17,091 bases of DNA from a virus. Both the position numbers and the translations under genes were made by a program. Below the pieces are notes generated by a model. That model worked only from the letters and a program-made list of their open reading frames with translations. It searched no databases and was not told the DNA's origin. Shown here piece by piece: positions 1 to 14,214 of this stretch (positions are counted from its first letter, which is position 1; the number at the start of each line of letters is the position of its first letter). The stretch spans positions 1-17,091 of the IMG/VR virus record IMGVR_UViG_3300047160_030535, one strand, 5' to 3'.

Positions 1-18
1 AATGCGCGCCCCTCCTGG

Positions 19-95
19 TGCGGGGTGGAGCAGTCTGGCAGCTCGTCGGGCTCATAACCCGAAGGTCGCAGGTTCAAATCCTGCCCCCGCTACCA
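19..95 (+). tRNA. Initiator tRNA-Met (tRNA-fMet), anticodon CAT at 53-55, CCA encoded
   Basis: 77-nt cloverleaf read by eye. Acceptor TGCGGGG/CCCCGCT, D arm GAGC-AGTCTGGCA-GCTC, T arm GCAGG-TTCAAAT-CCTGC, then A-CCA. Anticodon stem TCGGG/CCCGA has three consecutive G:C pairs next to loop CTCATAA. Layout and most bases match E. coli tRNA-fMet as I remember it. Positions 1:72 are T.T, and an unpaired 1:72 is the initiator hallmark. Confidence 0.9.
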
Positions 96-1705
96 ACGAA
101 ACTACAACGAGAGCCGCCGCCGGCTCTCAGCAGGGACGCCGCGACGCCCTGCTCACTCCAAAGCCTGACCTCCTGCTCGTCTGCCTCGACCGTCACGGTG
201 CCAACGTGCTCGCGGATCTCCTGGCGTGCGCGTGCGATGTCGCCTGAAGCCAGAGTGTCCTCAAGCCTCTCAACCGCTCGCTTGGCGCGTGTGGGCAGAT
301 CGGCCAGAAGCTCCGTAACGTCTGTCGCCGGCGACTGCGAGGCCTCGGCCTGTAGGCGCTCCAGTTCGGTCTCGGCCGCGGCCAAGCGAGCCGCGAGTGT
401 CGGCGAAGCTCGCCACGCACCGCTAGCGATGGCATCGGCTAGGTTGTCGACCTGGGCGCGCAGTTCCGCGGTGCGCCGGCGATTGTCAGGCGCTTTCGCC
501 GTCGGCTTCCGCACCTGTGCACGGAAGCGGCGGCACACCTCCTCGATGACCTCAGGCGACAGCATGTCGTGCTTGATGCCCGCCGTGACTTCCGCTTCGG
601 CCCACTGTCGCCGGATCGTGGCGCTGTTGGTGCACAACGCATGACCGCCGGTGGTGTGGCCAGCGCAGGCGTAGCGATCCACGCCGCGCATGGAGTACGA
701 CGCGCCGCAGTGAGAGCATTTGATCAGACCCGAGAGCAGGAACTTGTTCCCGGTGCCCGAGCGGATCGCGGCGCCTTTGGAGAGGCCACGCCTGACGCCC
801 TCGCCAATGCGGCGCGCCTGTTCCTCGCGGCGCGCCCGCGCCCGTTGCCAGAGATCATCGCTCACAATGCGCAAACGCTCGTCCTGGCGCGTGATCCACT
901 CCGAGCGCGGGTTCAACACCTGACGGCGCCGGCTCGAGTCGGCTGCCGACCGAATCCAGCGCGACCGGTTCCAGATCACCTCGCCCTTGTAAAGCGGGTT
1001 ACACAACACGCCGAGTCCGCGCGCGGGGTTGTTGTAGATCGCGCTCGACACCCACCCACGCTTCCGGCGCGCCTCGCGGCCCCATGTCGAGCCCGGTGAT
1101 GGCACGCCCTCTCGATTGAGCGCCTCCGCGATCGCGCGCGGGCTGTGACCATCGACGTACAAGGCGAACACTCGCCGCACGATTGCAGCTTGCGCCTCAT
1201 CGATCTCAACCTGCCCGGTGCCCGACAGCGCCGGCGGAACGTAGCCATAGGCGCGGCCGCCTGCGGTCTTGCCCTGGCGCGCGCGACCTTCGAGGCCGCG
1301 TCGCGTGCGCCGGCCGATCTCCTTGCGATACGCCTGGGCCATGGCACCGCCGACGGCGCCCATTATCTCTGCCGACTCGTGGCGCGTGTCGAGGTCATGC
1401 GTCACCACCGCGATTCCGAGGTCCGCGAGCTCGGCGAGCCGCGGCGATTGCTCGGCCAGGTTGCGCCACAGGCGCGACGTGTCCTCGGCGACGATTACAT
1501 CAAACTCGCGGTGCCGCGCGGACACCAGAAGCTTCTGATAGCCGGGCCGCTGCGCCGTGCCACCACTGATCGCCGCGTCGCTGAAGCGGGCGATTACCGT
1601 GAACCCGTTGGTATTCGCTATGCGCTCCGCGACTCGGAACTGATCGGGGAGCGAGGCCTCGGATTGCTTCTCCGTCGAGAAGCGGGCATACAGTGCGGCT
1701 CTCAT
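74..1705 (-). CDS. Large serine recombinase (serine integrase family), 543 aa
   Basis: N-terminus MRAALYARFSTEKQ has the resolvase/invertase catalytic-serine motif, followed by DVIVAEDTSRLWRN. Then comes a long recombinase domain, a Cys cluster (CSHCG...CAGH...C) and a coiled-coil-like, Ala/Glu/Leu/Arg-rich C-terminal third, which is the large-serine-recombinase architecture. ATGA start/stop overlap with the upstream gene. The stop codon (74-76) lies inside the tRNA T-loop. Confidence 0.9.
   Translation of the reverse strand: MRAALYARFSTEKQSEASLPDQFRVAERIANTNGFTVIARFSDAAISGGTAQRPGYQKLLVSARHREFDVIVAEDTSRLWRNLAEQSPRLAELADLGIAVVTHDLDTRHESAEIMGAVGGAMAQAYRKEIGRRTRRGLEGRARQGKTAGGRAYGYVPPALSGTGQVEIDEAQAAIVRRVFALYVDGHSPRAIAEALNREGVPSPGSTWGREARRKRGWVSSAIYNNPARGLGVLCNPLYKGEVIWNRSRWIRSAADSSRRRQVLNPRSEWITRQDERLRIVSDDLWQRARARREEQARRIGEGVRRGLSKGAAIRSGTGNKFLLSGLIKCSHCGASYSMRGVDRYACAGHTTGGHALCTNSATIRRQWAEAEVTAGIKHDMLSPEVIEEVCRRFRAQVRKPTAKAPDNRRRTAELRAQVDNLADAIASGAWRASPTLAARLAAAETELERLQAEASQSPATDVTELLADLPTRAKRAVERLEDTLASGDIARARQEIREHVGTVTVEADEQEVRLWSEQGVAASLLRAGGGSRCSFVGSGGRI
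77..95. repeat. attL core: left copy of the element-bounding direct repeat (13-bp perfect 83-95; 17/19 over 77-95)
   Basis: AATCCTGCCCCCGCTACCA here versus AATCGAGCCCCCGCTACCA at 16988-17006. This copy forms the functional T-stem/acceptor 3' strand of the tRNA. Confidence 0.75.
109..153 (+). other. Two consecutive GC-rich hairpins directly 3' of the tRNA, inside the recombinase 3' coding end
   Basis: GAGAGCCG-CCGC-CGGCTCTC (109-128, 8-bp stem). AGCAGGG(A)CG...CGCCCTGCT (129-153, 7+2 bp with one bulge). Neither has a U-tract. Function (tRNA 3' processing/termination, or recombinase mRNA 3' stabiliser) is not determinable from sequence. Confidence 0.3.
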
Positions 1706-2070
1706 CGCTGTCTCTCCAAGGTGTTGGCGACATCTCTTAGTGAGCTGTTGACGTCATCTAATGAACTGACCTCCATCCCCTGCTGGTCCCTCATCTGTTC
1801 CAGCAACCGCACCTGTTCTTGTTGCAGTTGCTTGATCCGCTCGAGGTGCTCCCCGCTCTTGTCCGACGAAGGCGTACCGCTCTTAAAAAGCATCGTGCCG
1901 AGCCAAGTCAGACAAAGTGCCTGCCAAAAGGTGATCGCCTTCAATCCGAAGACGTCCGGCACCACCTGATTCCAAAGCCACATCACTACGCCGGCTAACA
2001 CTACGCCGAGTCCCAACACAACCAGCACCCATACCGCCGCCACGGTCGCGGCTTCTTTGAAGGTCTGCAT
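1702..2070 (-). CDS. Small membrane protein with coiled-coil tail, 122 aa, unknown function
   Basis: Start set at ATG 2068-2070 (GGGGGA 9 nt upstream). The longest-ORF start at 2202 was not used because its first 44 codons are Arg/Ser-rich and overlap the upstream gene. Two hydrophobic segments (VAAVWVLVVLGLGVVLAGVVMWLW; ITFWQALCLTWLGTMLF), then a Q/E/L/R-rich heptad-like tail. Its stop overlaps the recombinase ATG (ATGA). Confidence 0.6.
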   Translation of the reverse strand: MQTFKEAATVAAVWVLVVLGLGVVLAGVVMWLWNQVVPDVFGLKAITFWQALCLTWLGTMLFKSGTPSSDKSGEHLERIKQLQQEQVRLLEQMRDQQGMEVSSLDDVNSSLRDVANTLERQR

Positions 2071-2071
2071 T

Positions 2072-2335
2072 TTATTGTTTCCCCCAGGTGAAGAAGAGGA
2101 TGATCCCCTGCAGGGCCGCGCTGACTCCGGTAGCGATCGCAGCCCATGCGTTGAGCCAGGTTTGGAGCTTGATGCGCGCGACGACTTCCTTTGGCGGCCC
2201 ACTGGCCCATGCTGATGGAAGCACCGGCCTCACCATCGCGGACGCCCACCACCAAAGGCCGCCTGATCCCAACGCCGTGATCGCCGCGGCGAACTGCAGG
2301 CATTTCAATACGCCCATTTGGGAATTTGTGCTCAT
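2072..2335 (-). CDS. Small hydrophobic/membrane protein, 87 aa, unknown function
   Basis: ORF with hydrophobic stretches (FAAAITALGSGGLWWWASAMV; WAAIATGVSAALQGIILFFTW). ATGA overlap with the upstream gene. Its stop lies 1 nt before the next ATG, so it is packed tightly in the operon. Confidence 0.55.
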   Translation of the reverse strand: MSTNSQMGVLKCLQFAAAITALGSGGLWWWASAMVRPVLPSAWASGPPKEVVARIKLQTWLNAWAAIATGVSAALQGIILFFTWGKQ

Positions 2336-3054
2336 TTGTGCTTTCTCGCTTTTTCAGAGCGCTGCCTCTCGCGGTGTGCGTGCACGTAGTAGAGATTCCG
2401 GTGAGCCGGTGAGCAGAAATGCTGTTGCTTGCTCACACTTACGATCTTGAAGTGGTTGCATTCGCGGCAGCGCAAGACCACGTGTCCGTGGGAGCGTAGC
2501 TCTGACAGTCTGATAATCGCCCAGGCGATGAGTCCGAGCGCGGTTCCAAATTTGATCTGCGGGGTGAACTCCGCGAAGCCCTTCGCGTTCAACACCACAC
2601 GCCCAGGCAAGAATTGCACGTCTGAATTAACGGTTGCGGCGAGCGAGGCGAAGGAACCTCCTCCGGCCGCAAACTTCTGTCCCGCACGGCCGAGCAGCCG
2701 CTTGTCCGTGATGAGATCAGCGAGCACCTCGCCCATCTGCCTGACCGCATCCACAAAGTTGATGTCGTAGCTCTGCTGCACGACGGCGGCGCCTTCCGGC
2801 GATGCGATGCGCTCCTCGCTCCAACCCTTGTGTCTCGCGTTCGCGATGATCGACTCGCGCAGAAAGTTGGTATTGCCGGGCGCGTGCTGATCAGCGATCG
2901 CGCGGAATGCGACGTGATCGATGTCTGCCGCCGTCGTGACTGCGGGCCGCTTGTATGGCGTCACCGCGTTGACAGCGGCGATGGCGCCAACGATGGCGGC
3001 CTGCTCGACCGCTGGCAGTGACTTGAACCTGAGCCTTGTAAGCGCTTTTGCCAA
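2332..3054 (-). CDS. Hypothetical protein, 240 aa, with a CGNR-like zinc-finger C-terminus
   Basis: GC-rich third codon positions. TTG start (no nearby in-frame ATG). The C-terminus CRECNHF-x10-FCSPAHRN-x5-HxHRER resembles the C-x2-C...CS...(C/H)xNR pattern of CGNR-type zinc fingers. It is the first gene of a 4-gene overlapping operon that ends in the recombinase. Confidence 0.6.
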   Translation of the reverse strand: MAKALTRLRFKSLPAVEQAAIVGAIAAVNAVTPYKRPAVTTAADIDHVAFRAIADQHAPGNTNFLRESIIANARHKGWSEERIASPEGAAVVQQSYDINFVDAVRQMGEVLADLITDKRLLGRAGQKFAAGGGSFASLAATVNSDVQFLPGRVVLNAKGFAEFTPQIKFGTALGLIAWAIIRLSELRSHGHVVLRCRECNHFKIVSVSKQQHFCSPAHRNLYYVHAHRERQRSEKARKHK

Positions 3055-3114
3055 CTACTCGCCCTTGCGTAATTACAAATGCCTGTAAGCGCTGGAATAC
3101 TCGGTACGCTTACA
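3037..3114. promoter_or_regulatory. Divergent promoter/operator region with three copies of half-site TGTAAGCG
   Basis: TGTAAGCGCT at 3037-3046 and 3084-3093 (direct), and CGCTTACA at 3107-3114 (inverted). TATAAA at 3118-3123 sits 5 nt before ATG 3129 with no SD in between, which suggests a leaderless transcript for the HTH gene. Confidence 0.5.
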
Positions 3115-3128
3115 ACTATAAATCACTT

Positions 3129-3389
3129 ATGGACATTAGAGAAGCCCATGAGACACCTGCACTGCAGGAGCAGTACTGCGAGACCGTTTCCACAATTGCG
3201 CGTCTCTCCGGGTGCGCCAGCGCCGAGATCGTCCGGTTGTATGCCGACCTCAAGTTGATCGAGTGCATTCGCACGGATAGCGGCCTGCGCCTCTTCAGGC
3301 CGAGCGCCGCACTGAAGGTGCGCGAGATTTACCGTGAGCGGCTAGCGCGTCGCGGGCGGCCCCGCAAGGTGGCGCAGGTCGCGGACTGA
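3129..3389 (+). CDS. MerR/excisionase-superfamily HTH protein, 86 aa (candidate repressor or directionality factor)
   Basis: VSTIARLSGCASAEIVRLYADLKLIECIRTDSGLRLFRPSAALKVREI fits the MerR-type HTH pattern (helix-turn-helix, then G.R.F/Y, then a second wing helix). Basic C-terminal tail. Start taken at ATG 3129 because the longer ORF start at 3048 would lie inside the divergent gene. Confidence 0.6.
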   Translation: MDIREAHETPALQEQYCETVSTIARLSGCASAEIVRLYADLKLIECIRTDSGLRLFRPSAALKVREIYRERLARRGRPRKVAQVAD

Positions 3390-3496
3390 GCCGATGGCCC
3401 TCCCCGCCCACCTGCAGCGCTACAGCGGCTTGATCGACCTCGTAGTCGAGGCGCTGGTGCGCGAGGCGCAGGGGGGAGCGGAGACCGAAAGAGAAA

Positions 3497-3526
3497 CGCC
3501 CGGCCGGGGACGAATCCGGCCGGGCG
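3497..3526 (+). terminator. Strong GC hairpin (11-bp stem, 8-nt loop) between the HTH gene and the replication-like operon
   Basis: CGCCCGGCCGG-GGACGAAT-CCGGCCGGGCG. It is followed only by a weak T-containing tract (CTATTC), so it may be a terminator or an attenuator. Confidence 0.4.
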
Positions 3527-3547
3527 CTATTCAGGCATCGAGAGGTA

Positions 3548-3832
3548 TTGACGATGACGAGTCTACAACCCCTGCGCCTCGCGCACAAAACTGAGGCGCA
3601 GAGCGCCGCCTCGCGTCGCAGACTTTGCACGGGCTGCCGCCACTTCGCCGCCGCTGCCGACATCACCGTCGTCAACTACGTACACGAGGTCGCGCCCTGC
3701 GCCTGGCGACTGGCCGTGCTGCGGTATTGCCCTCAATGCATTCGCATCTGGAACCGGCTGGAGCTCGCCGTCTGCCTGCGCGCCTTCCGCGCGCGACCTG
3801 CGCTGCGAGTGATCCCGGGAGGGCGGAGGTGA
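3548..3832 (+). CDS. Cys-rich small protein, 94 aa (putative zinc-binding)
   Basis: GAGAGG upstream of the ATG. High GC3. CTGC...C...CPQC arrangement. Its TGA overlaps the GTG of the next gene (GTGA). Confidence 0.55.
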   Translation: MTMTSLQPLRLAHKTEAQSAASRRRLCTGCRHFAAAADITVVNYVHEVAPCAWRLAVLRYCPQCIRIWNRLELAVCLRAFRARPALRVIPGGRR

Positions 3833-4140
3833 CCGCGGAAACTGCCAGCACGCCCAGCCTCGCCCACCTGCAGCGTGAGGCGCGCGAGATCATCGAGCGC
3901 GTCGACCGCGAGGCAGAAGAACTCCGCCAGCAGCTCGCTCGAGGTGTCCGCGAACGCGTGCCGCCCGCGGGGCTCTTATTGCGAACCGCTGCGGCACTTG
4001 GCGCCTGCGGCATCAACCATCGCGCGATGCTCGCGGCGCTCCGTGAGATTAATCAGGATTGCTTCCCAACACTCGATGGCGATGAGTTGGAGGAGATCGC
4101 GGTCGCTTTCACGTGTGATTCCAACGGGGAAGCAGCGTGA
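3829..4140 (+). CDS. Hypothetical protein, 103 aa
   Basis: Start placed at GTG 3829 (GGGAGGGCGGAG just upstream, GTGA overlap). The longer ORF from 3625 has an Arg-rich off-frame-looking N-terminus that overlaps the better-looking 3548 CDS. Helical, Glu/Arg-rich sequence. Confidence 0.5.
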   Translation: MTAETASTPSLAHLQREAREIIERVDREAEELRQQLARGVRERVPPAGLLLRTAAALGACGINHRAMLAALREINQDCFPTLDGDELEEIAVAFTCDSNGEAA

Positions 4141-5387
4141 CCGCCCAACTCGATGCGAGCGGAGGTGCAGCACTGCTCGATGAGTTGGAGAGCTTTCTCG
4201 CACGCTTCGTGGCGTATCCATCGCAGGACGCACGGATCGCTCACGCACTGTGGCTCGCGCACACGCATGCCATGGAGGCCTGGGAAAGCACGCCACGACT
4301 CGCGTTCCTCTCTCCAGAGCCCGGCAGCGGCAAGACCCGCGCGATCGAAGTATCGGAACTGCTGGTGCCGCGCCCAGTCGAGGCGATCAATGCAACTCCT
4401 GCCTATCTTTTCCGTAAGGTTGCGGACCCTGATGGTCTGCCCACGATCTTGTTCGACGAGATCGACACGCTCTTCGGTCCGCGCGCGAAGGAAAACGAAG
4501 AAATCCGCGGTGTGTTGAATGCCGGACATCGACGCGGAGCCATGGCTGGCCGCTGTGTCGTCAAAGGCAAGACCGTGATCACCGAGGAGCTCCCCGCCTA
4601 CTGCGCGGTGGCGCTCGCAGGCCTCGGCAATCTCCCCGATACCATCCTCACGCGCAGCATCGTGATCAGGATGCGCAAGCGCTCCCCCACTGAAATTATC
4701 GAAGGCTACCGGCGACGCCAGCACGCCCCCGAGGGGCACGCGCTGAGAGACCGCCTGGCCACGTGGATGCAAGCCAGGAGCCCCGAACTGAGCGATACGA
4801 GGCCCGCAATGCCAGAAGGCATCACCGATCGCGCTGCCGACGTATGGGAGTCACTACTCGCGATCGCTGATGCCGCAAGCGGCCACTGGCCTGAACGCGC
4901 ACGCGTTACCGCCGTTACCCTTGTTACCGATGCTAAGGCAGCCAGTCCCAGCCTTGGCGTACGCCTCCTCGCTGACCTCCGAACGGTCTTCGCGGGCGCC
5001 CCCGGCCTGCCCACGACTGAGATACTCCGGCGGCTGGCCGAGCTTGAGGATTCCCCCTGGGGTGACCTCAAGGGGAAGCCGCTCGACGCGCGTCGCTTGG
5101 CAAGTCTCCTCCGTCAGTACGAGGTGGAGCGCACAACGTTCCGTATCGGTAACGAAACAGCCAAGGGATACACCTCCGTTACCCTCCACGACGCATGGGC
5201 TAGGTACGTCAACCTTCCTAATAAAGGTAACAAAGGTAACGGAGGTGAGAGTGAGGGCGTAGGAGTGGCTACCAATGGATCGGTAACAGCGGTAACGCCG
5301 GTAACGGCAGGGTGTCGCCGCTGCGGTGGCGAAGGCTGCGAATGGTGTCGGCCCAAAGAGGCGCATCAGAGTGATATCCCGTTCTAG
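4137..5387 (+). CDS. DUF3631-like P-loop ATPase, 416 aa (replication-associated protein of integrative elements/phages)
   Basis: Walker A EPGSGKT, Walker B TILFDEID. The overall order of motifs is as I recall for DUF3631 proteins. C-terminal CRRCGGEGCEWC cluster. GTG start in a GTGA overlap with the previous gene. Confidence 0.75.
   Translation: MTAQLDASGGAALLDELESFLARFVAYPSQDARIAHALWLAHTHAMEAWESTPRLAFLSPEPGSGKTRAIEVSELLVPRPVEAINATPAYLFRKVADPDGLPTILFDEIDTLFGPRAKENEEIRGVLNAGHRRGAMAGRCVVKGKTVITEELPAYCAVALAGLGNLPDTILTRSIVIRMRKRSPTEIIEGYRRRQHAPEGHALRDRLATWMQARSPELSDTRPAMPEGITDRAADVWESLLAIADAASGHWPERARVTAVTLVTDAKAASPSLGVRLLADLRTVFAGAPGLPTTEILRRLAELEDSPWGDLKGKPLDARRLASLLRQYEVERTTFRIGNETAKGYTSVTLHDAWARYVNLPNKGNKGNGGESEGVGVATNGSVTAVTPVTAGCRRCGGEGCEWCRPKEAHQSDIPF
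4905..5305. repeat. Iteron-like array: 10 copies of GGTAAC/GTTACC, three clusters on a 9-bp register
   Basis: GTTACC at 4905, 4914, 4923. GGTAAC at 5148. GTTACC at 5178. GGTAAC at 5226, 5235. GGTAAC at 5282, 5291, 5300. An AT-rich patch TTCCTAATAAAGGTAACAAAGGTAAC lies at about 5215-5240. All copies are inside the DUF3631-like CDS. Confidence 0.7.
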
Positions 5388-5445
5388 GCACCGGCACCCG
5401 CGCTTGCCGTCCGGGTCCGGAGTTTGGTGGCCGTGCGCTGAGGTG

Positions 5446-5463
5446 CCGCGCGTCATCGCGCGG
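5446..5463 (+). terminator. Hairpin CCGCGCG-TCAT-CGCGCGG downstream of the DUF3631-like gene
   Basis: Perfect 7-bp GC stem, 4-nt loop, about 60 nt after the stop. The downstream tract TTGCGGTTGCTTC is only weakly T-rich. Confidence 0.3.
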
Positions 5464-5478
5464 TTGCGGTTGCTTCTA

Positions 5479-5510
5479 ACTTTCCCTATTCTTGTAAGAA
5501 TTGGGAAAGT
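5479..5510. other. 32-bp near-perfect palindrome with lox/FRT-like layout (12-bp arm, 8-bp spacer, 12-bp arm); candidate tyrosine-recombinase site
   Basis: ACTTTCCCTATT-CTTGTAAG-AATTGGGAAAGT. The arms match 11/12 as inverted repeats. It is AT-rich in a GC-rich background and sits 15 nt upstream of the recombinase ATG. A third arm-like copy, AAATGGGAAAGT, lies at 5578-5589 in the same orientation as the right arm. Confidence 0.55.
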
Positions 5511-5524
5511 CGATAGAGGCCACC

Positions 5525-6160
5525 ATGAGCAACGTCATAGCCTTACGCGCAGCGCGCACCCCCTCGCCGACAACAGAAAATGGGAAAGTTCCGCCGAAGC
5601 GGCGCAAGGACGCCAGGCCGCGGAAGCATCTGACGCCTGCGGAGGTAGCGGCGCTCCTGCGAGCGGCGCGGAAGTCGGGGCGCTACGGGCTGCGCGACGA
5701 GGTGGCGGTGCTACTTGCCTACCGGCACGGCCTCCGGGCCTCGGAGCTCGTCGCACTCGAGTGGTCGGCAATCGACTTCAAGGGCGGCACGATCGCGATC
5801 CGGCGCGCCAAGGGCGGCATGACGACCGAGCACCCGCTTCGCTCCGTCGAGTTGCGCATCCTCGGGAAACTGCGTCGGGAGCAGCCGGAGACGCGCTACG
5901 TGCTCATGAGCGAGCGCGGCACGCCGTGGAGCACGAGCAACTTCCGCAAGGTGCTGCAGCGGCTCGCCGAGGCTGCAGGGCCGGCGATCGCTGTCACCGT
6001 CAACCCGCATGCGCTGCGTCACGCCTGCGGCTTCTATCTCGCCGGCAAGGGTGTCGACACCCGGGCGCTCAGTCACTACCTCGGCCACCGCAGCCTGCAG
6101 AGCACCGAGCGCTACACCGCGCAGAGCGCTCATCGCTTCCGGGACTTCTGGCGCGACTGA
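5525..6160 (+). CDS. Small tyrosine recombinase, 211 aa (catalytic domain only; FimB/FimE / small Xer-Cre size class)
   Basis: Tyrosine-recombinase signature: LLAYRHGLRASE (Arg I), HALRH (His/Arg II), LGHRS, ERYT (catalytic Tyr). There is no arm-binding or long N-terminal domain. AGAGG lies 5 nt upstream of ATG 5525. The TTG at 5501 given by the ORF track falls inside the palindrome and is less likely. Confidence 0.85.
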   Translation: MSNVIALRAARTPSPTTENGKVPPKRRKDARPRKHLTPAEVAALLRAARKSGRYGLRDEVAVLLAYRHGLRASELVALEWSAIDFKGGTIAIRRAKGGMTTEHPLRSVELRILGKLRREQPETRYVLMSERGTPWSTSNFRKVLQRLAEAAGPAIAVTVNPHALRHACGFYLAGKGVDTRALSHYLGHRSLQSTERYTAQSAHRFRDFWRD

Positions 6161-6303
6161 TAAGCAGCAGCTGCTGCAGCTGCAGCAGTACTACTACCAA
6201 TAGATGCACCGAGGCCTGCGACAGATACTCCGGTCACCATCAGGGAGGCCACGAACATCACCATGATCATGATGATCATGATGATCACGACCACCATGGT
6301 CAT
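6130..6303 (-). CDS. Possible small hydrophobic peptide, 57 aa (speculative)
   Basis: MTMVVVIIMIIMIMVMFVASLMVTGVSVAGLGASIGSSTAAAAAAAAYQSRQKSRKR: one very hydrophobic segment, poly-Ala, and a basic tail. No convincing SD. The second half has low GC3. The 3' end overlaps the tyrosine recombinase stop region in antisense. Confidence 0.25.
   Translation of the reverse strand: MTMVVVIIMIIMIMVMFVASLMVTGVSVAGLGASIGSSTAAAAAAAAYQSRQKSRKR
6263..6289. repeat. Tandem 9-bp repeat ATGATCATG x2 plus ATGATCACG, giving three GATC sites 9 bp apart
   Basis: Read directly: ATGATCATG ATGATCATG ATGATCACG. It is embedded in a locally AT-richer, low-complexity segment (6160-6350). Confidence 0.8.
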
Positions 6304-6350
6304 GACGACCACGACCAGGGTGGCTCGGGGGCGAGAGATGTAAGGCGACG

Positions 6351-6641
6351 CTACGCCGCCAGAGCCTTCAGCACGTGGTCCGGATCCTTCTTGATCGCCT
6401 TCAGGAGAGCCTTGGCGGGCCCGGTGGGCTCGCGCAGGCCCTGCTCCCAATTACGCAGCGTGCCGACGTTCACGTGCATCAGGGCGGCGAACTTGGGCTG
6501 GCTCAAGCCGGTCTCCGCCCGCAGCGCCTTGATGGCCACAGCGTCGATGCTGAACTCGCGGGACGGCGCCCGCTCGCCGCGGGCGATTTCGCCCATCTGC
6601 GTCACGCTCTCAACCAGGTCAGCAAACAGCTTTTTGTTCAC
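6351..6641 (-). CDS. higA: HigA-2-like XRE-family antitoxin, 96 aa
   Basis: IKALRAETGLSQPKFAALMHVNVGTLRNWEQGLREPTGPAKALLKAI matches the XRE HTH plus the WEQG.R.PtGpA.aLL signature of HigA-2-type antitoxins. GTG start with GAGAGG upstream. It lies 10 nt downstream of the toxin gene. Confidence 0.8.
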   Translation of the reverse strand: MNKKLFADLVESVTQMGEIARGERAPSREFSIDAVAIKALRAETGLSQPKFAALMHVNVGTLRNWEQGLREPTGPAKALLKAIKKDPDHVLKALAA

Positions 6642-6651
6642 GGCACACCTC

Positions 6652-6963
6652 TCACCAATCCTGCACGAGCCTACGGAGAACCTTCTTTTCTGCTGCGCTC
6701 AGATCGTCTTTCACACCCTTGCTGTAGATCGCCAACAAGCGCACCTGCGATGCCGCGGTGAGGTAGAAGTAGATCACTCGTACGCCGCCGCTCTTGCCAC
6801 CGCCTGGGACCGCCCAGCGCACCTTGCGCAACCCGCCGGTGCCTTGGATGACTGGCCCGGCCTGCGGGCGGAGCGCCAGAAACCACTGAAACTCCGAATA
6901 AGCTTCATCGCTAAGCAGCTCCTTCACCTGCCGGGTGAAGACTGGCGTCTCGATGAAGACCAT
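6652..6963 (-). CDS. higB: HigB-2-like RelE/ParE-superfamily toxin, 103 aa
   Basis: GPVIQGTGGLRKVRWAVPGGGKSGGVRVIYFYL...LLAIYSKGVKDDLSAAEKKVL matches the conserved GtGGlRKlR...GKrGG.RviY...iY.K...dL core of HigB-2-type toxins. Toxin-first gene order is typical of hig loci. Confidence 0.8.
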   Translation of the reverse strand: MVFIETPVFTRQVKELLSDEAYSEFQWFLALRPQAGPVIQGTGGLRKVRWAVPGGGKSGGVRVIYFYLTAASQVRLLAIYSKGVKDDLSAAEKKVLRRLVQDW

Positions 6964-6972
6964 GCGGCATGG

Positions 6973-7004
6973 TACACCAATGGTGTAGATACATCAATGG
7001 TGTA
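6973..7004. promoter_or_regulatory. Tandem palindromic operators in the higB / 77-aa-gene divergent intergenic region
   Basis: TACACCAATGGTGTA (6973-6987) and TACATCAATGGTGTA (6990-7004), 17-bp period. Each has 6-bp arms TACA(C/T)C/GGTGTA. They are flanked by ATGCGGC...GCCGCAT symmetry around the two divergent start codons. Confidence 0.6.
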
Positions 7005-7019
7005 CGGTAGGGCCGCATT

Positions 7020-7253
7020 ATGCCCGTGACCAGCCCGCGCAATATCAAGGCTTTCCGCCGCTCCCAGCGCTATCGCGTCGAGATCCGCCGTGTGTGGATC
7101 GACCTGGTGCAGCGCCGGCCCTTCGAGCCTGTCACCGCGGCGGCGATCGCGAGGCACCTCAAGTTCACGCTGTCAGCCAGCGCCATTCGTTGGCACATGC
7201 GTGCGATCCGCACGGCCGCACTGGTAGCCGACGCAGATAGGTTGGCACTATGA
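7020..7253 (+). CDS. Small putative DNA-binding protein, 77 aa
   Basis: High GC3. VTAAAIARHLKFTLSASAIRWHMRAI looks like an HTH/winged-helix segment. It is transcribed divergently from higBA. Confidence 0.5.
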   Translation: MPVTSPRNIKAFRRSQRYRVEIRRVWIDLVQRRPFEPVTAAAIARHLKFTLSASAIRWHMRAIRTAALVADADRLAL

Positions 7254-7334
7254 GAATTCCTAGGTCGATAGAGTGCAGCTATGATGGCTGCAGTTGGTGA
7301 AGTACTTTTCTGCACCAACAGGAGAGTGCTCGCG

Positions 7335-7955
7335 ATGCCCGGCCAAGGTGGTAACCCGCACGTTCAATGCTCTATCTGCCGGCACGCGGAGCGGCCGCGT
7401 ATGGAGCTATTGCTGGTGAGCGGGGCTGCGGCGAGCGCTGTGGGGCGCAAGTTCAGTGTGAGCCCCCATGCCCTGGGACGGCACTTGCGGGCCCACGTAA
7501 GCCAGGAGAGGCGAGCGCAGCTGATTGCCGGCCCGATCAAGCTGCACGAGCTCGCCGAGCGTGCCGCTGAGTCCGATCTCTCGCTGCGCGACTATCTGGC
7601 GCTCGTGCGCTCCACGGTGCTCGCGCAGATGCTGGCGGCCGCTGAGGCGAGTGACCGGCAGGGGGTGGCGCTTCTCGCCGGGCGGGTGACGGAATGCCTG
7701 CGGCTCGAGGCACAGGTGAACGACGAACTGCGGCCGGTACTCTCGCAGGTCAACAACAACACGGTCATCAACAACTTCTACGCGTCGCCCGAGTTTGCGC
7801 AGTTCATGGATGACCTGGTGCGCGCCCTCGGCCCATTCCCGGAGGCTCGCGAGGCCGTGCTTGCAGTGTTCGAGCGCCGCCTCGCGCCCGCCGCGCAACA
7901 CCCTGCCCTGGAGCATCAGCCCGATGTCAAAGAAACCGCCGCAGCCGCCGTCTGA
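7335..7955 (+). CDS. Putative terminase small subunit, 206 aa (N-terminal Zn-finger + HTH)
   Basis: AGGAG lies 9 nt upstream of ATG 7335; the alternative ATGs at 7281/7284 lack an SD. CSICRH...GRKFSVSPHALGRHLRAH is a C-x2-C plus HTH N-terminus that I recall from small terminase-like phage proteins. The gene lies immediately upstream of TerL and overlaps it by 32 nt. Confidence 0.55.
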   Translation: MPGQGGNPHVQCSICRHAERPRMELLLVSGAAASAVGRKFSVSPHALGRHLRAHVSQERRAQLIAGPIKLHELAERAAESDLSLRDYLALVRSTVLAQMLAAAEASDRQGVALLAGRVTECLRLEAQVNDELRPVLSQVNNNTVINNFYASPEFAQFMDDLVRALGPFPEAREAVLAVFERRLAPAAQHPALEHQPDVKETAAAAV

Positions 7956-10128
7956 GCCCCCGGCGGCGAAGCCGCACCGCGCTTTTGTCGAGGCGTTGCG
8001 CGGCGCGTGGCGCCGTCAGGCGCGTCCCGAGCAGCTCGCACCGCCTGGTGCGTGGACTACGTGGGTGTTCAACGGCGGCCGCGGCAGCGGCAAGACGCGC
8101 AGCGGCGCCGAGTGGGTGCAGGAGCGCGTAGCCGGCGGCGAGAGGTACGTGCACCTGGTCGCGCCTACCGCGGCCGACGTGCGCGACGTCATGCTCGAAG
8201 GGCCGGCGGGCATTCTCAGTATCGCAGCGCCGCACATGCGCCCCATCTATCAGCCGAGCTTGCGCAAGCTCGTTTGGCCCAACGGTGCGCAGGGATTGCT
8301 GTTCAGCGCCGATGAGCCCGACCGATTGCGCGGCCCACAGTGCGGCACGCTCTGGATTGATGAGCTTTGCGCCATGCGTACGGCGCAGGACGTGCTCGAC
8401 AACGCCTACTTCGGGCTGCGCCTCGGCAAGGACCCGCGCTGCCTGATAACTACCACCCCGAGGCCGCTCAAGCCATTCAAGGCGCTGCTCGCGCGCGACG
8501 GCCAGGACGTTGTGGTGACGCGCTCGTCGAGCTACGCGAACCGCGACAACCTGGCGCCGTCATTCTTCGCGCAGATCGTCGCCAAGTACGCAGGGACGCG
8601 TCTACACGCGCAGGAGGTGGAGGCGCAGCTGCTCACGGACACGCCCGGCGCGCTCTGGCATCTCGATCGCATCGAGGAGTTGCGCGTGCGCGTCGCGCCG
8701 CAGCCATTCGAGCGCGTTGTCGTGGCGATCGATCCAGCCGTGACTTTCGGTCCCGACAGTGACGAGACGGGCATCGTGGTAGTCGCGCTCGCCGCGGATG
8801 GCACGGCGTACGTGCTCGATGATCTCAGCGGCCGTTATCCGCCCGAGGAATGGGCGCGCCGCGCGATTCAAGCCTACAGGGTGCACGCCGCCGATCGTAT
8901 CGTCGCCGAGATCAACAACGGCGGTGCGTTGGTTGAGAGCACGCTGCGCAGCGTCGACCCCGGGATTCCGTACACCGCGGTGCACGCGAGTCGCGGCAAG
9001 CTGACGCGCGCCGAGCCAGTCAGCGCGCTCTATGAGCAGGGGCGTGTGCATCACGTCGGCGTGTTCGGGCCGCTCGAGGATCAACTCACGAGTTATGACG
9101 GCAGTCGAAACGGCGCGAGTCCCGATCGGCTGGACGCGCTGTGCTGGGCGATCACCGAGCTCATGCTTGGCGAACCCCCGGGCCGCTTCATCCGCGCCGA
9201 GGCGCTGCTGCGCACGGATTCAGCGGGCGTACCGGCTCCCGTAGACATGCCCGACCAGGTGGAGCGTGTGTTCGCCTTCGCGGCCATCGTTGAGAGCGAA
9301 GCCGATGCGCTCGGCACGGTGTTTTTTGCCGTGGCGCCGGGCAGCCCGCGGGTGGTGGTCGCGGGCTGGGATATTCAGGCCCTCGAGCAGTCAACGCTTG
9401 ACACATATTTCCCAGCGGTGGCCGAGCGCCTGCAGGAGCTCGCCGCGCTCACCGGCAGTAGTCCGCTGCGTGCGCGGCTGATCGTCGAGCCAGCGGGGCT
9501 CGGCGCGGTGCTGCTCGAGCAAGGCCAGCTGCGGCGCTACAACGTTGCGGCGCTCGTCGACAAGGGTCTACTCGAGAAGGATCTGACGGCACGCGTGATC
9601 GAGGTCGGCAACTACCTGGCGGCTGGCGGAATCAAGCTGCTTGCGCGAGCACACGAGGAAACGCAGACGTTCAAGGGAGTGAATCGCAATCATCTGACGG
9701 CAGCGCTCGCCGCATTCAGGCTCGGCGACGCCGACAAGAAGATTGGTCCGCTGCTCGCGGCCTTCGCGACGGGCGCACTCGATGTATTGAACACGAACCC
9801 CGCTCTGAATACGTGGTTGCGGTTGGCGGACCGGTGGGGACTTACGAATCGTGCGCCCGCCGAGGGCGGGAAGCTCGCGAATGTCATGGCACCGCCCCCT
9901 GCGGCGCGCCCTGCGCCGGCCGCGGCGCCGCCCGTGCATCCCGAGGTCGCCAAGCTCATGGGGCCGCTGCTGTACGCGGGCTGCAACGTCGCGGCTATCA
10001 GGCGGCAAGCCGAGCAGACGCTGCGCAAGCGCTGCGAGATCGCGGTGAGTATCGAGCGCCAGGCGGGTCGCCACGCGGCTGCCGATGCGTTGATCGCCGA
10101 GCTGGCCGCCACTGGGCTCACCCCATGA
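7924..10128 (+). CDS. Terminase large subunit, 734 aa, with an unusual ~315-aa C-terminal extension
   Basis: Walker A GGRGSGKT and Walker B-like TLWIDE. Nuclease-domain motifs VVVAIDPA, IVAEINNGGALVES, SPDRLDALCWAITEL. This core ends near nt 9180, but the ORF continues to 10128. Start set at ATG 7924 (MSKKPPQPP). Confidence 0.9.
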   Translation: MSKKPPQPPSEPPAAKPHRAFVEALRGAWRRQARPEQLAPPGAWTTWVFNGGRGSGKTRSGAEWVQERVAGGERYVHLVAPTAADVRDVMLEGPAGILSIAAPHMRPIYQPSLRKLVWPNGAQGLLFSADEPDRLRGPQCGTLWIDELCAMRTAQDVLDNAYFGLRLGKDPRCLITTTPRPLKPFKALLARDGQDVVVTRSSSYANRDNLAPSFFAQIVAKYAGTRLHAQEVEAQLLTDTPGALWHLDRIEELRVRVAPQPFERVVVAIDPAVTFGPDSDETGIVVVALAADGTAYVLDDLSGRYPPEEWARRAIQAYRVHAADRIVAEINNGGALVESTLRSVDPGIPYTAVHASRGKLTRAEPVSALYEQGRVHHVGVFGPLEDQLTSYDGSRNGASPDRLDALCWAITELMLGEPPGRFIRAEALLRTDSAGVPAPVDMPDQVERVFAFAAIVESEADALGTVFFAVAPGSPRVVVAGWDIQALEQSTLDTYFPAVAERLQELAALTGSSPLRARLIVEPAGLGAVLLEQGQLRRYNVAALVDKGLLEKDLTARVIEVGNYLAAGGIKLLARAHEETQTFKGVNRNHLTAALAAFRLGDADKKIGPLLAAFATGALDVLNTNPALNTWLRLADRWGLTNRAPAEGGKLANVMAPPPAARPAPAAAPPVHPEVAKLMGPLLYAGCNVAAIRRQAEQTLRKRCEIAVSIERQAGRHAAADALIAELAATGLTP

Positions 10129-10129
10129 G

Positions 10130-10423
10130 GTGCGCGGCGCTGCGGGCGTCTGCGTGAGCCAGGCGCCGCGCAATCGCCTGACGCCCGAGCAGGTCGGCCG
10201 CTCGGTACTCGCGGTGCTGGCGCGCCAGGCTGACGAGAAGCGCCGCCAGGGCGAGCGAACCGCTGCCGCCGTGCGAGCGTTGCTCAAGGGCGATCCGGCG
10301 CTCTCAGCGCGCGAGGTTCACGCACGGCTGCCGATTGTGGTATCGGTGCGGCGCGTTCAACAGATTTTGAAAGCGCTTCGACGAAGCACCGTCGGTGTTT
10401 CGCTTCAGTCCGACGCACACTGA
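10130..10423 (+). CDS. Small HTH protein, about 97 aa
   Basis: High GC3. GTG start (10130, or alternatively 10154). LSAREVHARLPIVVSVRRVQQILKAL looks like an HTH. Confidence 0.5.
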   Translation: MRGAAGVCVSQAPRNRLTPEQVGRSVLAVLARQADEKRRQGERTAAAVRALLKGDPALSAREVHARLPIVVSVRRVQQILKALRRSTVGVSLQSDAH

Positions 10424-10427
10424 GTCC

Positions 10428-10652
10428 ATGGACGTCCAACTCGCACGCACCACGGGCCCGCTGGAGCGCCTCGCTTACTCGCTGGCCGAGGCCGAGGCGG
10501 CGAGCGGAATCTCGCGCAGCTCGCTGTACAACCTGATCGCGGCCGGGAAGCTCAAGACAATCCAGCTCGGCCGCCGGCGCCTGGTGCCGCGCGAAGAACT
10601 TGAGCGGCTGTGCAGCCTCAACCCAACCAACCAGGAGGAGCGACTCGCGTGA
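10428..10652 (+). CDS. Excisionase-family (AlpA/Xis-type) HTH DNA-binding protein, 74 aa
   Basis: YSLAEAEAASGISRSSLYNLIAAGKLKTIQLGRRRLVPREELERL matches the excisionase-family HTH pattern (s..eaA..lgvSrstly.li..G.l....iGrr.lip...l..). Confidence 0.75.
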   Translation: MDVQLARTTGPLERLAYSLAEAEAASGISRSSLYNLIAAGKLKTIQLGRRRLVPREELERLCSLNPTNQEERLA

Positions 10653-11113
10653 CAGAAACGAAGACACCATGGCTGCGCGCAGGAGACGGCCGCGTGCGCT
10701 TGATCGTGTTGAAGATGTTCTATTTCCTCCAGAAGGTTGGTGGCACCAACAGCACGACAGGCCGAGAGCGTAAGTTCGAGGTGAAGGAGCACCTGTTGGA
10801 TCCCAACAATGCCGACGACGCGGCGGTGCTCGCACACCCTTGGGTTCACCGGGACTTTTGCGACGGCTTCATCGAGTCGCCCGCCGCGACTCGCGCGCGC
10901 GTCGAGCGCGAAGCCGCAGCGGAAGCCGAGCGCACCGCGGCCGCCCAGCGTCGCATCGAAATATTGACGCGCGAGGCCGATGCAGCATTCGGACACGCAG
11001 TGCGCCACGCTCAGCAGCAGGGCGCCGCAGGGGCGGCGGTGGCTGACGAGCTCAACACCCCGTTAAACCAACTCGGCGGCGCTGCGCTCGACGTGCCGCT
11101 CGATGCACGGTGA
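10649..11113 (+). CDS. Hypothetical protein, 154 aa
   Basis: GTG start in a GTGA overlap with the excisionase-like gene, with AGGAGGAG upstream. The C-terminal half is Ala/Glu/Arg-rich and helical. Confidence 0.5.
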   Translation: MTETKTPWLRAGDGRVRLIVLKMFYFLQKVGGTNSTTGRERKFEVKEHLLDPNNADDAAVLAHPWVHRDFCDGFIESPAATRARVEREAAAEAERTAAAQRRIEILTREADAAFGHAVRHAQQQGAAGAAVADELNTPLNQLGGAALDVPLDAR

Positions 11114-11174
11114 GCGGATGAATCACATTCGAGCATGGGGGGGCCAGCGGGTTGGGCGCCGCACGCTCCGTCGC

Positions 11175-11193
11175 CGGGTTTTTACCCGTTTTT
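11175..11193 (+). terminator. Short intrinsic-terminator-like hairpin CGGGT-TTTT-ACCCG followed by TTTTT
   Basis: Read directly, about 60 nt after the stop at 11113. The stem is only 5 bp, so this is weak. Confidence 0.3.
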
Positions 11194-11353
11194 CTACCGG
11201 CGGCCGCACCACTGGTAGGTGTGCGCGAAAACCACCAGCGCCGGCACGGGGGGGAGCCTCCTAATAATCTTTTTCCCCCTGGTGGCCGCAAGCGCGCCGG
11301 TTGGTCCATGTCGGCGCGCGCCCCTTCGAATTCAACGTTAGGAGTTAGTTGAC

Positions 11354-12067
11354 ATGAATACTCTTGGTTATAGGCACTGCGGCGAACGCGTCGTGGGACC
11401 AATTCCAACACGCGATGGCAACGTGTACGCCCCGCTGAGGATTACGCGTGATCAGCTCAACAGCGTCGAGCCCACTGGTCAAACAATTAGCCGCGGCAAA
11501 GTGTGGACCGGTGAGGGCGTCAACGCACGACTTGACTCGAAAGCTGCGCCCGTTCGCGCTTTTGTCGGCGGGTATACGCTCGGCAATGTCATTCACGCCG
11601 TCGATCCGGGGCAATTGATTGATCTCGCGCGCACCTACAAAGGGCTCATCGAAGATGAAGACATTCGCGCTGGTGTCGAGCACCAGATCGATGCGTTGGA
11701 ACGCGAGTGGGTAGCCGATCCGCGCTCTGGCGGCATTGATCATCGCGGTGCGCGGGACCGCGGTGCAAAGGACTCGCCTGGCGCCGCCCTTGACAACCCC
11801 TACCCCGCCGAACACGAGGCGCCGCCGCTGGTTCCATCGCAGTCGCGGGATGCGATGTTCAACCCCGCACGCACTGAGGCCTTCGCGCGGAACATGAAGT
11901 CAGGCCGCACCGACCAGACCTCCGCAGTGCGGGACGCGGCCGTCGCAAGCGCGAAGGCCCACGCCGCAGGGCGACAGCAGCCAACGCGCAGCCGGTTTTT
12001 TGACCCCAGCCCGGCGCGGAGCTATGCCGAAAGACTCAGGGCCGGCCGGGCGGCGAAGAGTGCGTAG
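11354..12067 (+). CDS. Hypothetical protein, 237 aa
   Basis: AGGAG lies 9 nt upstream of the ATG. The sequence is plausible as non-repetitive protein in this frame, while the competing minus-strand ORF 11345-11815 looks off-frame. No family recognised. Confidence 0.6.
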   Translation: MNTLGYRHCGERVVGPIPTRDGNVYAPLRITRDQLNSVEPTGQTISRGKVWTGEGVNARLDSKAAPVRAFVGGYTLGNVIHAVDPGQLIDLARTYKGLIEDEDIRAGVEHQIDALEREWVADPRSGGIDHRGARDRGAKDSPGAALDNPYPAEHEAPPLVPSQSRDAMFNPARTEAFARNMKSGRTDQTSAVRDAAVASAKAHAAGRQQPTRSRFFDPSPARSYAERLRAGRAAKSA

Positions 12068-12320
12068 GTTGCAGCACGACGAACTCGTCGCGGCGGCTAT
12101 GGCGCTGCCCACGCCGGCGCACTGTGCGGGCTGCGGCCGCGCGTTTCGCGATGAGGTGATCTGGCGGCGCGTCGAGGAGATGATGTTGGGGCCGGTCGTG
12201 ATCGCGCTTTGCGAGCCATGCAATCAGCGAATCCCTCGCGGGAGCCTGGCAGAGCTGCCGTTGATAGCGAAGGCTGAGGGCGAGGTGCTCGCGGCCTTGA
12301 TTGCGCAAGGCCACGCATAA
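12060..12320 (+). CDS. Small CxxC...CxxC zinc-ribbon protein, about 86 aa (start uncertain: GTG 12060 or ATG 12099)
   Basis: HCAGCGRAF...CEPCNQ. The TAATG stop/start overlap with the next gene suggests translational coupling. Confidence 0.45.
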   Translation: MRRLQHDELVAAAMALPTPAHCAGCGRAFRDEVIWRRVEEMMLGPVVIALCEPCNQRIPRGSLAELPLIAKAEGEVLAALIAQGHA

Positions 12321-13339: not shown

Positions 13340-13359
13340 ACGCCGAAGGTGGGCCAAAC

Positions 13360-14214
13360 ATGTCGTACTCAATCGCAACCGTCTTTGACGCCGATGGCAC
13401 GGCTAGCGGCGGCACGATTGGGGCGACGGGAACGCTTACAGTCGGCGGGCGCGCGCCAATACTGATCGTAGGCGCTGGCTTTTCCGACCTCGTATCTGGC
13501 GTGAGTGATGGCACCTCGAACAGCTATTCGCACGTGACGGGTGGGTCGCTCGCCAACCCCGGGTCCTCGGGACTGTTCTACTCACTCTGGGAGTGCAAGA
13601 ACATCGTGACGGGCGGCTCGCAGACCGTGACGGCGACGTACTCGAGCGCGGTGACGCAGCGCGCGATCGCCGTCGTGGTCGCGACAGGACTGGATACGTC
13701 GGCGGCTGCGGCGATTAACACGACCGCCAACATCACCCCAGGCAACGGGACTGACATCATTACATCGGGTACGGCGACCCCTGGGGCACAGCCGGCAATG
13801 GTTCTTGGCTTCGCTCAGGACGTGACCGCAGACTTCAGTTCGCTGACCGCTGGCACAGGATTCACTTCGCACAGCCTGCCAAACTTCAGCCTGATCAACA
13901 GCGGCTGTATCGCCATCTGTGAAGACAAGCGGGTCACCTCGACCAGTGCAGTCGCGGCAACCTTCTCGACCGCCGCTGGCGGTGGCGATGACTACGCTGC
14001 CTTGGTTTACATAGTCCCGGAGACCTCTACTGGAAATACTGGTATCACTCCTGGCGCGGGCTCGGCCACATGTACCGGTAACACCGCGATCGTGACCCCG
14101 CGCCTCAACACCGTCATCACGCCGGTTCGCGCGCAGTACGAGCGCGACACTAGCAGCGGACTCCTTGTGCCCTCACGCAAAATTTTTCTGCCGCCGATGA
14201 AAATAGCGGCGTAG
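13360..14214 (+). CDS. Ser/Thr/Gly/Ala-rich beta-type protein, 284 aa (possible tail fibre / receptor-binding or jelly-roll protein)
   Basis: GGTGG lies 7 nt upstream of ATG 13360; the ORF-track start at 12886 is an off-frame-looking extension through the previous gene. The composition and alternating beta-strand-like segments (TVTATYSSAVTQRAIAVVVATG; AVAATFSTAAGGGDDYAALVYIV) are typical of fibre/lectin-like folds. Confidence 0.5.
   Translation: MSYSIATVFDADGTASGGTIGATGTLTVGGRAPILIVGAGFSDLVSGVSDGTSNSYSHVTGGSLANPGSSGLFYSLWECKNIVTGGSQTVTATYSSAVTQRAIAVVVATGLDTSAAAAINTTANITPGNGTDIITSGTATPGAQPAMVLGFAQDVTADFSSLTAGTGFTSHSLPNFSLINSGCIAICEDKRVTSTSAVAATFSTAAGGGDDYAALVYIVPETSTGNTGITPGAGSATCTGNTAIVTPRLNTVITPVRAQYERDTSSGLLVPSRKIFLPPMKIAA

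Follow-up and report, generated by a model that had tools for sequence, protein, structure and literature searches.

What becomes of a recombinase when the element that encodes it excises, if the last codons of its gene are written in host DNA? The question is raised by a viral stretch of 17,091 nt (IMG/VR record IMGVR_UViG_3300047160_030535, positions 1 to 17,091; the whole stretch is referred to here as the window), in which the gene of a large serine recombinase (LSR) runs outward over the left junction of a phage-like element and takes its last two codons and its stop codon from a host tRNA gene. An earlier note on this DNA had proposed that the attachment (att) core of the element lies within the recombinase open reading frame (ORF), and that recombination there would exchange the C-terminal tail of the enzyme. 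Taken as a whole, we consider it quite probable that the element is inserted in the tRNA gene, that the crossover falls in the last codons of the recombinase, that the enzyme would carry a different tail in each state and that this difference may be regulatory.

An integrative element in an initiator tRNA gene

The only tRNA gene found in the window by ARAGORN and Rfam is an intact tRNA-Met(CAT) gene on the plus strand (19-95 by ARAGORN; 19-92 by Rfam RF00005, 64.4 bits). It has a 1:72 mismatch, an A11:T24 pair and three G:C pairs (GGG/CCC) in the anticodon stem, which are established identity elements of bacterial initiator tRNA, and by these rules it is of initiator type. The last T-stem bases, the acceptor 3' strand and the ACCA of this gene make up the left copy of a 13-bp direct repeat, GCCCCCGCTACCA (attL core, 83-95, plus strand), and the sequence is matched at 16994-17006 on the same strand by a right copy, the attR core, which corresponds to the displaced original 3' end of the tRNA. 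These are the only two copies in the window, with 0 matches in 200 shuffles, and imperfect similarity around the repeat reaches 24 nt (72-95 against 16983-17006, 83%). The layout is that of a tRNA island, with an intact tRNA gene at one end, a 3' fragment at the other (similarity from 16983) and a recombinase aboard. The two 13-mer copies bound a 16.9-kb phage-like integrative element in the 3' end of the initiator tRNA-Met gene, and between them lie genes for a large terminase subunit, a baseplate hub, a DUF3631 replication-type protein and two recombinases, together with several genes that match no family.

The recombinase at the left junction (74-1705, minus strand; 543 aa in the integrated state, ending ...FVGSGGRI) was identified from its ORF and from the Pfam domains Resolvase (PF00239, 1.7e-29, residues 3-146), Recombinase (PF07508) and Zn_ribbon_recom (PF13408). 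Y6, R8 and S10, of which S10 and R8 are catalytic, are invariant in an alignment of 32 sequences, as are the zinc-ribbon cysteines C330, C333, C347 and C358. The predicted model has long helices at residues 384-455, in keeping with a zinc ribbon and an inserted coiled coil, and its top Foldseek matches are Bxb1 (9iu2), 9dxh/9y66 (SPbeta-type among the best), phiC31 (9tep/9rah) and LI (4kis), with E values down to 4e-15. Read on the minus strand from 100 to 74, the gene ends TTC GTT GGT AGC GGG GGC AGG ATT TGA (F V G S G G R I stop). The codons GGT AGC GGG GGC are those of the att core, while AGG ATT (RI) and the TGA stop are T-arm DNA of the host tRNA (74-82, minus strand; sequence and ARAGORN), the stop being plus-strand TCA at 74-76 within the T-loop TTCAAAT (73-79). 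Both the placement of the core inside the ORF and that of the stop in the T-loop, as the earlier note had read them, are confirmed.

This arrangement is not peculiar to the window. Among the 120 best homologues (52-75% identity to the window LSR), 61 end in SGGRI, 27 in GFEPxTFGL and 24 in core-encoded residues followed by another tail, the remaining 8 being truncated or otherwise different. The GFEPATFGL ending is the antisense of the same tRNA in another frame (GTA GCG GGG GCA GGA TTT GAA CCT GCG ACC TTC GGG TTA TGA), with the stop falling in the anticodon loop, and a one-base difference in the spacer ahead of the core separates the two clades. Viral contigs, species-representative genomes and metagenomes also provided 135 related loci, designated by L numbers below. 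The recombinase stop lies inside an antisense tRNA-Met gene in 55 non-duplicate loci (28 + 27), and in a further 27 the core is followed by something other than a tRNA. At the level of sequence, a gene end inside an antisense tRNA is thus the rule for a large recombinase family, in two reading frames. The expectation that orthologues would stop in tRNA-derived DNA holds for these 55 loci and for 88 of the 120 best homologues, and fails for two distant relatives (L040 and L045), which stop before the core.

The hosts on record are mostly Steroidobacteraceae and other metagenome-assembled genomes of Gammaproteobacteria. On long contigs the target tRNA adjoins the nuo operon or a HIT-family gene; four long chromosomal contigs (L141-L147) provided host context and no further far ends, the elements exceeding the 10-kb flank. 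The target half-site is identical across most loci, which come from several bacterial lineages, so that a broad host range may be possible. Cultured or deposited phage records contain no close relative, the best match having 36% identity. Two single sequences deserve mention. The recombinase of L038 (~1338-1520; 48% identity) ends ...AGVEPATPRLGGECSIH-stop inside an antisense tRNA-Arg(CCT) gene, so that on one occasion or more the habit of ending inside a tRNA has passed to a different tRNA. A 136-aa ENA fragment (P0121), which of all matches comes closest to the window C-terminus (73%), reads ..GSRCSFVGSGAGFDPYLEVRLG, as if one G of the core had been lost; such a loss would shift the frame to that of the second clade, and could be a real variant or a sequencing error.

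Predicted crossover position and excised-state tail

To what extent the enzyme would be altered depends on where the strands are exchanged. Ten loci, including the window, have both junctions, and for these the phage site (attP: recombinase-side arm, core and far-end arm) and the bacterial site (attB) were reconstructed. The ten attP sites share a single peak of dyad symmetry, with 0.51 complementary positions against ~0.25 elsewhere, centred between nt 10 and 11 of the core in recombinase sense, GGTAGCGGGGGC, which is 85|84 in the window; attB has a weaker peak at the same position. Mirrored motifs GCAAGT...ACTTGC, 32 nt apart, delimit a site of ~46 bp, a typical size for large serine integrases. 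One of these arms, the P' arm, lies within the coding sequence (96-118, minus strand, codons SRCSFV), where relatives have GCAAGT or GCAAAT 6 nt before GGTAGC. It mirrors a motif in the distal P arm, GCAAGTAA (16974-16981, plus strand), which encodes the L-L-A of the tail discussed below and which, by analogy with solved LSR-DNA complexes, is probably the subsite of the zinc-ribbon domain. In L067 and L037, attL and attR do not have the same base at position 12 of the core (equivalent to window position 83), and each variant goes with its outer arm, so that exchange cannot lie beyond base 11. Symmetry and segregation together predict a central dinucleotide at 84-85 (CC on the plus strand, GG in recombinase sense), at which the LSR would exchange strands. 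We infer that the crossover falls there, at the junction of the T stem and the acceptor stem and on the tRNA-proximal edge of the 13-bp identity, which agrees with the earlier placement of the crossover inside 83-95. The last glycine codon, GGC (85-83), straddles this point, and the two isoforms therefore differ from the next residue on.

On this placement everything in the tRNA that lies 3' of the crossover, its last 10-11 nt (86-95, the acceptor 3' strand and ACCA), would be replaced by element DNA upon integration. Since the tRNA must stay intact, the acceptor 3' strand and ACCA have to be present in the element as an exact duplicate. The long identity of 13 bp, and with it the fixed codons G-S-G-G (V-A-G-A in the second frame), would then be due to the need to repair the tRNA and not to the chemistry of recombination.

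On excision the ORF would be rejoined to the far-end arm and gain a basic tail of 17 residues. The arm in question (16940-16993, minus strand) is the P arm of the element; it would encode SIRTLLARLPRRGKSVT followed by a TAG stop at 16942-16940, and homologous arms are present in L018, L067, L086, L025, L001 and L078. When the ORF is continued in silico from the core into the reverse complement of 16940-16993, the product is ...GSGGSIRTLLARLPRRGKSVT-stop, a protein of 558 aa, which reproduces exactly the tail and the lengths (558 and 543 aa) given in the earlier note. The excised form is known here as this reconstruction. Its circular junction is predicted to read ...GGTAGCGGGGGC/TCGATTCGG..., and the empty site would be the tRNA followed by TAAAAATCAAT.

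Is this tail a peptide in its own right, or simply what the DNA of the arm happens to encode? Arms were counted as cognate only if physically linked to their own recombinase. The cognate tails of clade A are SIRTLLARLPRRGKSVT-stop in the window, SIRHLLARVPRRTRPA-stop in L018, SICHLLATIPRRRRNR-stop in L067, RLSLLIATLPRRRSIQRIG-stop in L086 and TLPTLLADIPRLQARRYPR.. in L025, and those of clade B are RYGTYLLTVPRRSAAP.. in L024, RLWHCLLRLSRRTR-stop in L080 and CFWRCLLCIPC-stop in L096. Related elements follow the pattern ..LLAx-hydrophobic-PRR.., which the arms of L001, L078 and L068 also match. In the recombinase frame the motif is SIRTLLARLPRR in the window, SIRHLLARVPRR in L018, SICHLLATIPRR in L067, RLSLLIATLPRR in L086, TLPTLLADIPRL in L025, PQPPLLATIPRL in L078 and SIRQLFASLPRP in L001. 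The L-L-A codons coincide with the DNA motif TTACTTGC, and the binding site therefore accounts for them. The hydrophobic-P-R-R codons (in the window CTG CCA AGG CGC, L-P-R-R, 16958-16969, minus strand) lie 25-36 nt from the dyad centre, beyond the symmetric site, and vary synonymously, all four proline codons being in use and arginine being encoded by both AGG and CGN. In clade B the TTxCTTGC motif stands at an unchanged offset from the core, and the P/S-R-R codons are moved by +1 nt. This shift restores the frame of the clade B recombinases, so that the frameshift before the core is compensated and PRR remains in frame.

Codon statistics were taken over the five codons that follow the DNA motif in 11 arms, of which 8 are surely cognate. 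The recombinase frame gives an amino-acid identity of 0.505, as against 0.22 and 0.20 for the other two, nucleotide identity by codon position is 0.51/0.75/0.32, and the ratio of non-synonymous to synonymous changes (pN/pS) is 0.50 in the recombinase frame against 0.88 and 2.24. These values are suggestive rather than conclusive of selection on the excised-state tail as a peptide, and the extended basic tail that the earlier note had proposed to look for in the attP context is indeed encoded, with synonymous turnover, by far-end arms in the frame of their own recombinase. A second family of tails (L140, L033 twice, L138 and P0072) has the form ..P-T-x-(x)-R-R-L-S-L-A-A-stop, with serine encoded by AGC, AGC, TCG and TCC, which again points to selection on the peptide, and a third ends ..RRSRALLRAA-stop. 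Tails of sister lineages end ..RLSLAA, ..RLSLAG, ..LLRAA or ..LVRAA, with serine by AGC and TCN (L138, 11616-11674; L140, 6307-6365; L033, 4610 and 5395; P0061, P0072, P0087 and P0069; L096, 11618). The ..LAA end resembles an ssrA-type degradation signal, and the window tail, which ends ..RRGKSVT, has no recognisable degron.

The tails are basic and are predicted by AlphaFold to be disordered. The predicted local distance difference test score (pLDDT) is below 50 from residue 530 on in the 543-aa form and from 521 on in the 558-aa form, whose model has a short low-confidence helix at 543-548. The tail would hang from a linker that is itself predicted to be disordered. As the most likely mechanism we propose, as a hypothesis, that it acts as a regulatory appendix of the episomal enzyme, altering its stability or its activity in integration, and an effect of the isoform on directionality may be envisaged in the same way. 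Integration would delete the tail automatically and leave the prophage with a tail-less enzyme, in parallel to Int and IntX of phage Mx8. A wider conjecture, which we offer only tentatively, is that a whole family of serine integrases senses its own state of integration through the C-terminus, the basic episomal tail (ssrA-like ..LAA in some lineages) controlling stability or competence for integration until integration deletes it.

Weighing the explanations

The exchange of tails may be real and yet neutral, the att site overlapping the end of the gene through compactness of the element and the protein ending, in effect, at its last folded helix (~528). This we regard as possible, though doubtful. 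It is favoured by the predicted disorder of residues after 528, by tail lengths that range from 0 to ~46 residues in unrelated families, by recombinases of tandem arrays that acquire tails not their own, at times out of frame, with no apparent harm, and by the two relatives that stop before the core. A neutral tail is harder to reconcile with a peptide that is kept while its codons change within tail families (four proline codons, AGG/CGN for arginine and AGC/TCN for serine), with a frameshift in clade B that is compensated after the DNA motif, with a pN/pS that is lowest in the recombinase frame and with read-through of the core in relatives down to ~43% identity. The same codons bear on the idea that the stretch beyond the core is conserved as DNA, as an extended or accessory binding site or as a signal for the convergent last gene, with the peptide motif as a side effect. 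The first part of the tail (SIR, LLA) does coincide with expected recombinase subsites, where GATTyG looks like the tRNA arm and TTACTTGC has its mirror motif in the P' arm, and the literal string CCAAGGCG is common to the window, L018 and L024. But the hydrophobic-PRR codons lie outside the symmetric site, other arms encode the same residues by different bases (CCT CGC CGG, CCA CGT CGG, CCG CGC), third codon positions are the least conserved (0.32) and the motif moves by exactly one base in the frame-shifted clade, which makes this account improbable.

The remaining alternatives concern the junction itself. tRNA islands classically use tyrosine integrases, and the window does encode a small tyrosine recombinase (5501-6160, plus strand; 219 aa, PF00589), which could have carried out the integration while the serine recombinase merely adjoins the junction. 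We think this very unlikely: in all 55 loci that link the serine recombinase to tRNA-Met, the junction falls within the last codons of this recombinase, the site is built as a dyad in the manner of serine-integrase sites (~46 bp around a central dinucleotide), the tyrosine recombinase is short and lies in the middle of the element, and earlier lists already include prophages with serine recombinases at tRNA-Met and tRNA-Arg (PMC6536676, PMC9658991). The tyrosine enzyme is also found in only some of the related elements (L002, 6290-6919; L031; L057; L078; 42-77% identity), all of which also carry a serine recombinase, so that the serine enzyme is the one tied to the tRNA site. Its role may be in the resolution of dimers or in inversion. 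Finally, the 13-bp repeat might be a chance match, with the real ends elsewhere and no exchange of tails, as the GC-rich window contains other 13-nt repeats (family D9). With 0 matches expected for this 13-mer, a position exactly at the tRNA's 3' end, and sequence beyond the right copy that is homologous to related far-end arms (TCGATTCGG being identical in L001 and L018), this hardly merits belief.

The regulatory reading of the tail, which we prefer, has its own difficulties. L040 and L045 (41-47% identity) stop (..LLINQ) 13 nt before the core, so that not every member of the family need read through the core. Their junctions (L040, ~11590-11615; L045, ~11564-11620) have AT-richer surroundings, and in these elements the enzyme is not changed by integration. 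The codon evidence comes from 5 codons in 11 arms, of which 8 are surely cognate, and the arms are related by descent; with the eight cognate arms only, pN/pS is 0.57, 0.73 and 2.73, a small contrast between the recombinase frame and frame +1 (0.57 vs 0.73). The tail families are mutually unrelated, with lengths from a few to ~46 residues and no motif common to the whole family, and AlphaFold gave no confident structure for the tail of the 558-aa isoform. An exact look-up of the window LSR in the protein collection returned no match. No circular contig was recognised by terminal overlap among the fetched contigs and no excised junction was observed, and many of the junctions that lack a tRNA are tandem arrays, which are therefore not proof of excision. 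A hairpin also has to be considered: 9 bp of GC (TGAGAGCCGGCGGCGGCTCTCG) followed by a T-rich tract (TTGTAGTTTC), with a terminator-like score, lie within the LSR ORF (108-129, minus strand), 13-34 nt before the att core and so ahead of the stop codon in either state. Of 77 distinct relatives, 31% have the 40 nt equivalent to this region in the top decile of stability among windows of the gene concerned. The hairpin could end many transcripts before either tail is translated; it might also block antisense transcription into the tRNA gene, leaving messages without a stop codon.

The junctions without a tRNA diverge directly past GGTAGCGGGGG(C). That all of them are excised (attP) forms was considered and rejected, since second copies of the core and the 3' ends of neighbouring recombinases mark many as tandem arrays. 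In L018, L030, L032, L033 and L078 another element of the family stands between the recombinase and the tRNA (L018, 257; L030, 2849 and 11606; L032, 1816 and 11625; L033, 4610 and 5395; L078, 9585), and in such arrays one recombinase reads into the far-end arm of its neighbour, sometimes in the wrong frame and with an immediate stop (VVAGA-stop). Two or more elements of the family can thus be found in tandem at one initiator tRNA gene, in what looks like the use of an occupied site. Searches for further tails were little productive. A pattern scan of viral contigs for window-type arms (GTAGCGGGGGC-N12-TTRYTTGC) gave 0 matches and a scan with the exact arm of the window two unrelated loci only, and the last 95 residues of the excised isoform, used as a protein query, matched only two fragments, neither carrying the tail.

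Relation to known systems and further features of the element

The closest precedent is the integrase of phage Mx8, whose target is also a tRNA gene. In the summary given in PMC6070905 (citing Tojo 1996 and Magrini 1999), the coding sequence of int in Mx8 contains attP, and integration creates a recombinant gene with a different 3' end, whose product is still active and has altered properties; Mx8 and SSV are listed together as having integrases that extend across attP in the Islander paper (PMC4383910). As in Mx8, the att core of the window element lies inside the integrase ORF and the prophage and phage forms differ at the C-terminus, the excised form here being reconstructed. Unlike Mx8 Int, a tyrosine recombinase with another chemistry, fold and site architecture, the enzyme is an LSR whose changes are confined to the residues that follow a disordered linker, and a large family shares the trait in two reading frames. 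The system works like Int and IntX of Mx8 and, given the different chemistry and fold, is not a member of that family. SSV-type integration likewise combines an att site inside the integrase gene with a tRNA target, and splits the gene in two (PMC5861418, PMC4383910). In these fuselloviruses the gene of a tyrosine integrase is partitioned, whereas here all domains are in one 543-aa ORF and only the residues after GSGG are exchanged.

A third comparison is with mycobacteriophages such as BPs and Brujita (clusters G, I, N and P), in which attP lies in the repressor gene, the viral form of the repressor has an ssrA-like tag, and integration does away with this tag and leaves a stable prophage form; the BPs-type integrase also has a C-terminal proteolysis signal (PMC4557955). 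The likeness consists in an attP inside an ORF and a C-terminal extension that is lost on integration, and a sister tail family here ends ..RLSLAA. The differences are that there a repressor is split and the integrase is of the tyrosine type, while here it is the integrase itself that would change and the window tail ends ..GKSVT; by ORF and domain calls no repressor lies at either junction of the window element. With phiC31, Bxb1, A118/LI and SPbeta the LSR shares its domain set and fold, the ~46-bp imperfect dyad, the central dinucleotide and related arm subsites in attP and attB. To our knowledge, attP lies outside the coding sequence in these canonical large serine integrases, and their targets are protein-coding genes; here the target is an initiator tRNA gene, attP and attB share as much as 13 bp of identity to allow repair of the tRNA, and the gene overlaps the site at its 3' end. 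Prophages with a serine recombinase at a tRNA have been tabulated for Paracoccus (vB_PamS_Pami6, tRNA-Met) and Variovorax (PDNC026_pp_2, tRNA-Arg) (PMC6536676, PMC9658991). They resemble the window element, as far as their descriptions go, in having a serine recombinase as integration module and a tRNA site, and differ in that neither an overlap of gene and site nor an isoform switch is described. Our literature search found no description of a serine integrase with attP inside its own gene, and in a 2015 survey serine integrases specialising on a tRNA gene were said to be unknown (PMC4383910).

The family described here shows that serine integrases can specialise on a tRNA gene, in this case an essential and nearly invariant initiator tRNA, and would indicate that having to restore the tRNA leaves its mark on the att site as well as on the last codons of the protein. 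A gene that is rewritten by each integration and excision would be a new way to couple activity or stability to the state of integration. Serine integrases are valued in genome engineering for their simplicity and directionality, and, if the proposal is true, the tail adds a layer of directionality in gene structure to enzymes thought to depend only on coiled-coil interactions and a separate directionality factor. In practical terms, software that calls genes or finds islands should be prepared for serine recombinase ORFs lying antisense across part of a tRNA gene.

Of the other features of the element, a small membrane-protein gene (1705-2070, minus strand; ORF calls) lies directly upstream of the LSR, overlaps its start and is probably co-transcribed with it. 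The last gene of the element (16428-16943, plus strand; 171 aa, no family) is convergent with the recombinase, and its stop would overlap that of the excised-state recombinase by 4 nt. Neither this gene nor the other cargo of the window has homologues in the related loci, so that synteny gave no confirmation of a permuted excised genome. Past the original end of the tRNA lies host flank (17007-17091, plus strand; the B' arm and beyond, from sequence reading), and these 85 nt are markedly AT-rich in a window that is otherwise ~65% G+C. Similar A/T-rich flanks stand beside the attR cores of L080, L096 and L045; the segment may be a conserved host spacer downstream of the tRNA, or else the attachment site's host half.

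Arrays of GTTACC with 3-nt spacing stand in inverted orientation around a segment of ~300 nt (4904-4948, 5226-5246 and 5262-5306), within the 3' end of the DUF3631 gene. A 45-nt inverted repeat near the tyrosine recombinase was considered as an invertible switch and rejected, being made of GTTACC-N3 iterons, and the arrays look more like the iterons of a replication origin. At the equivalent place L002 has a different inverted array (CAGTCTCGG).

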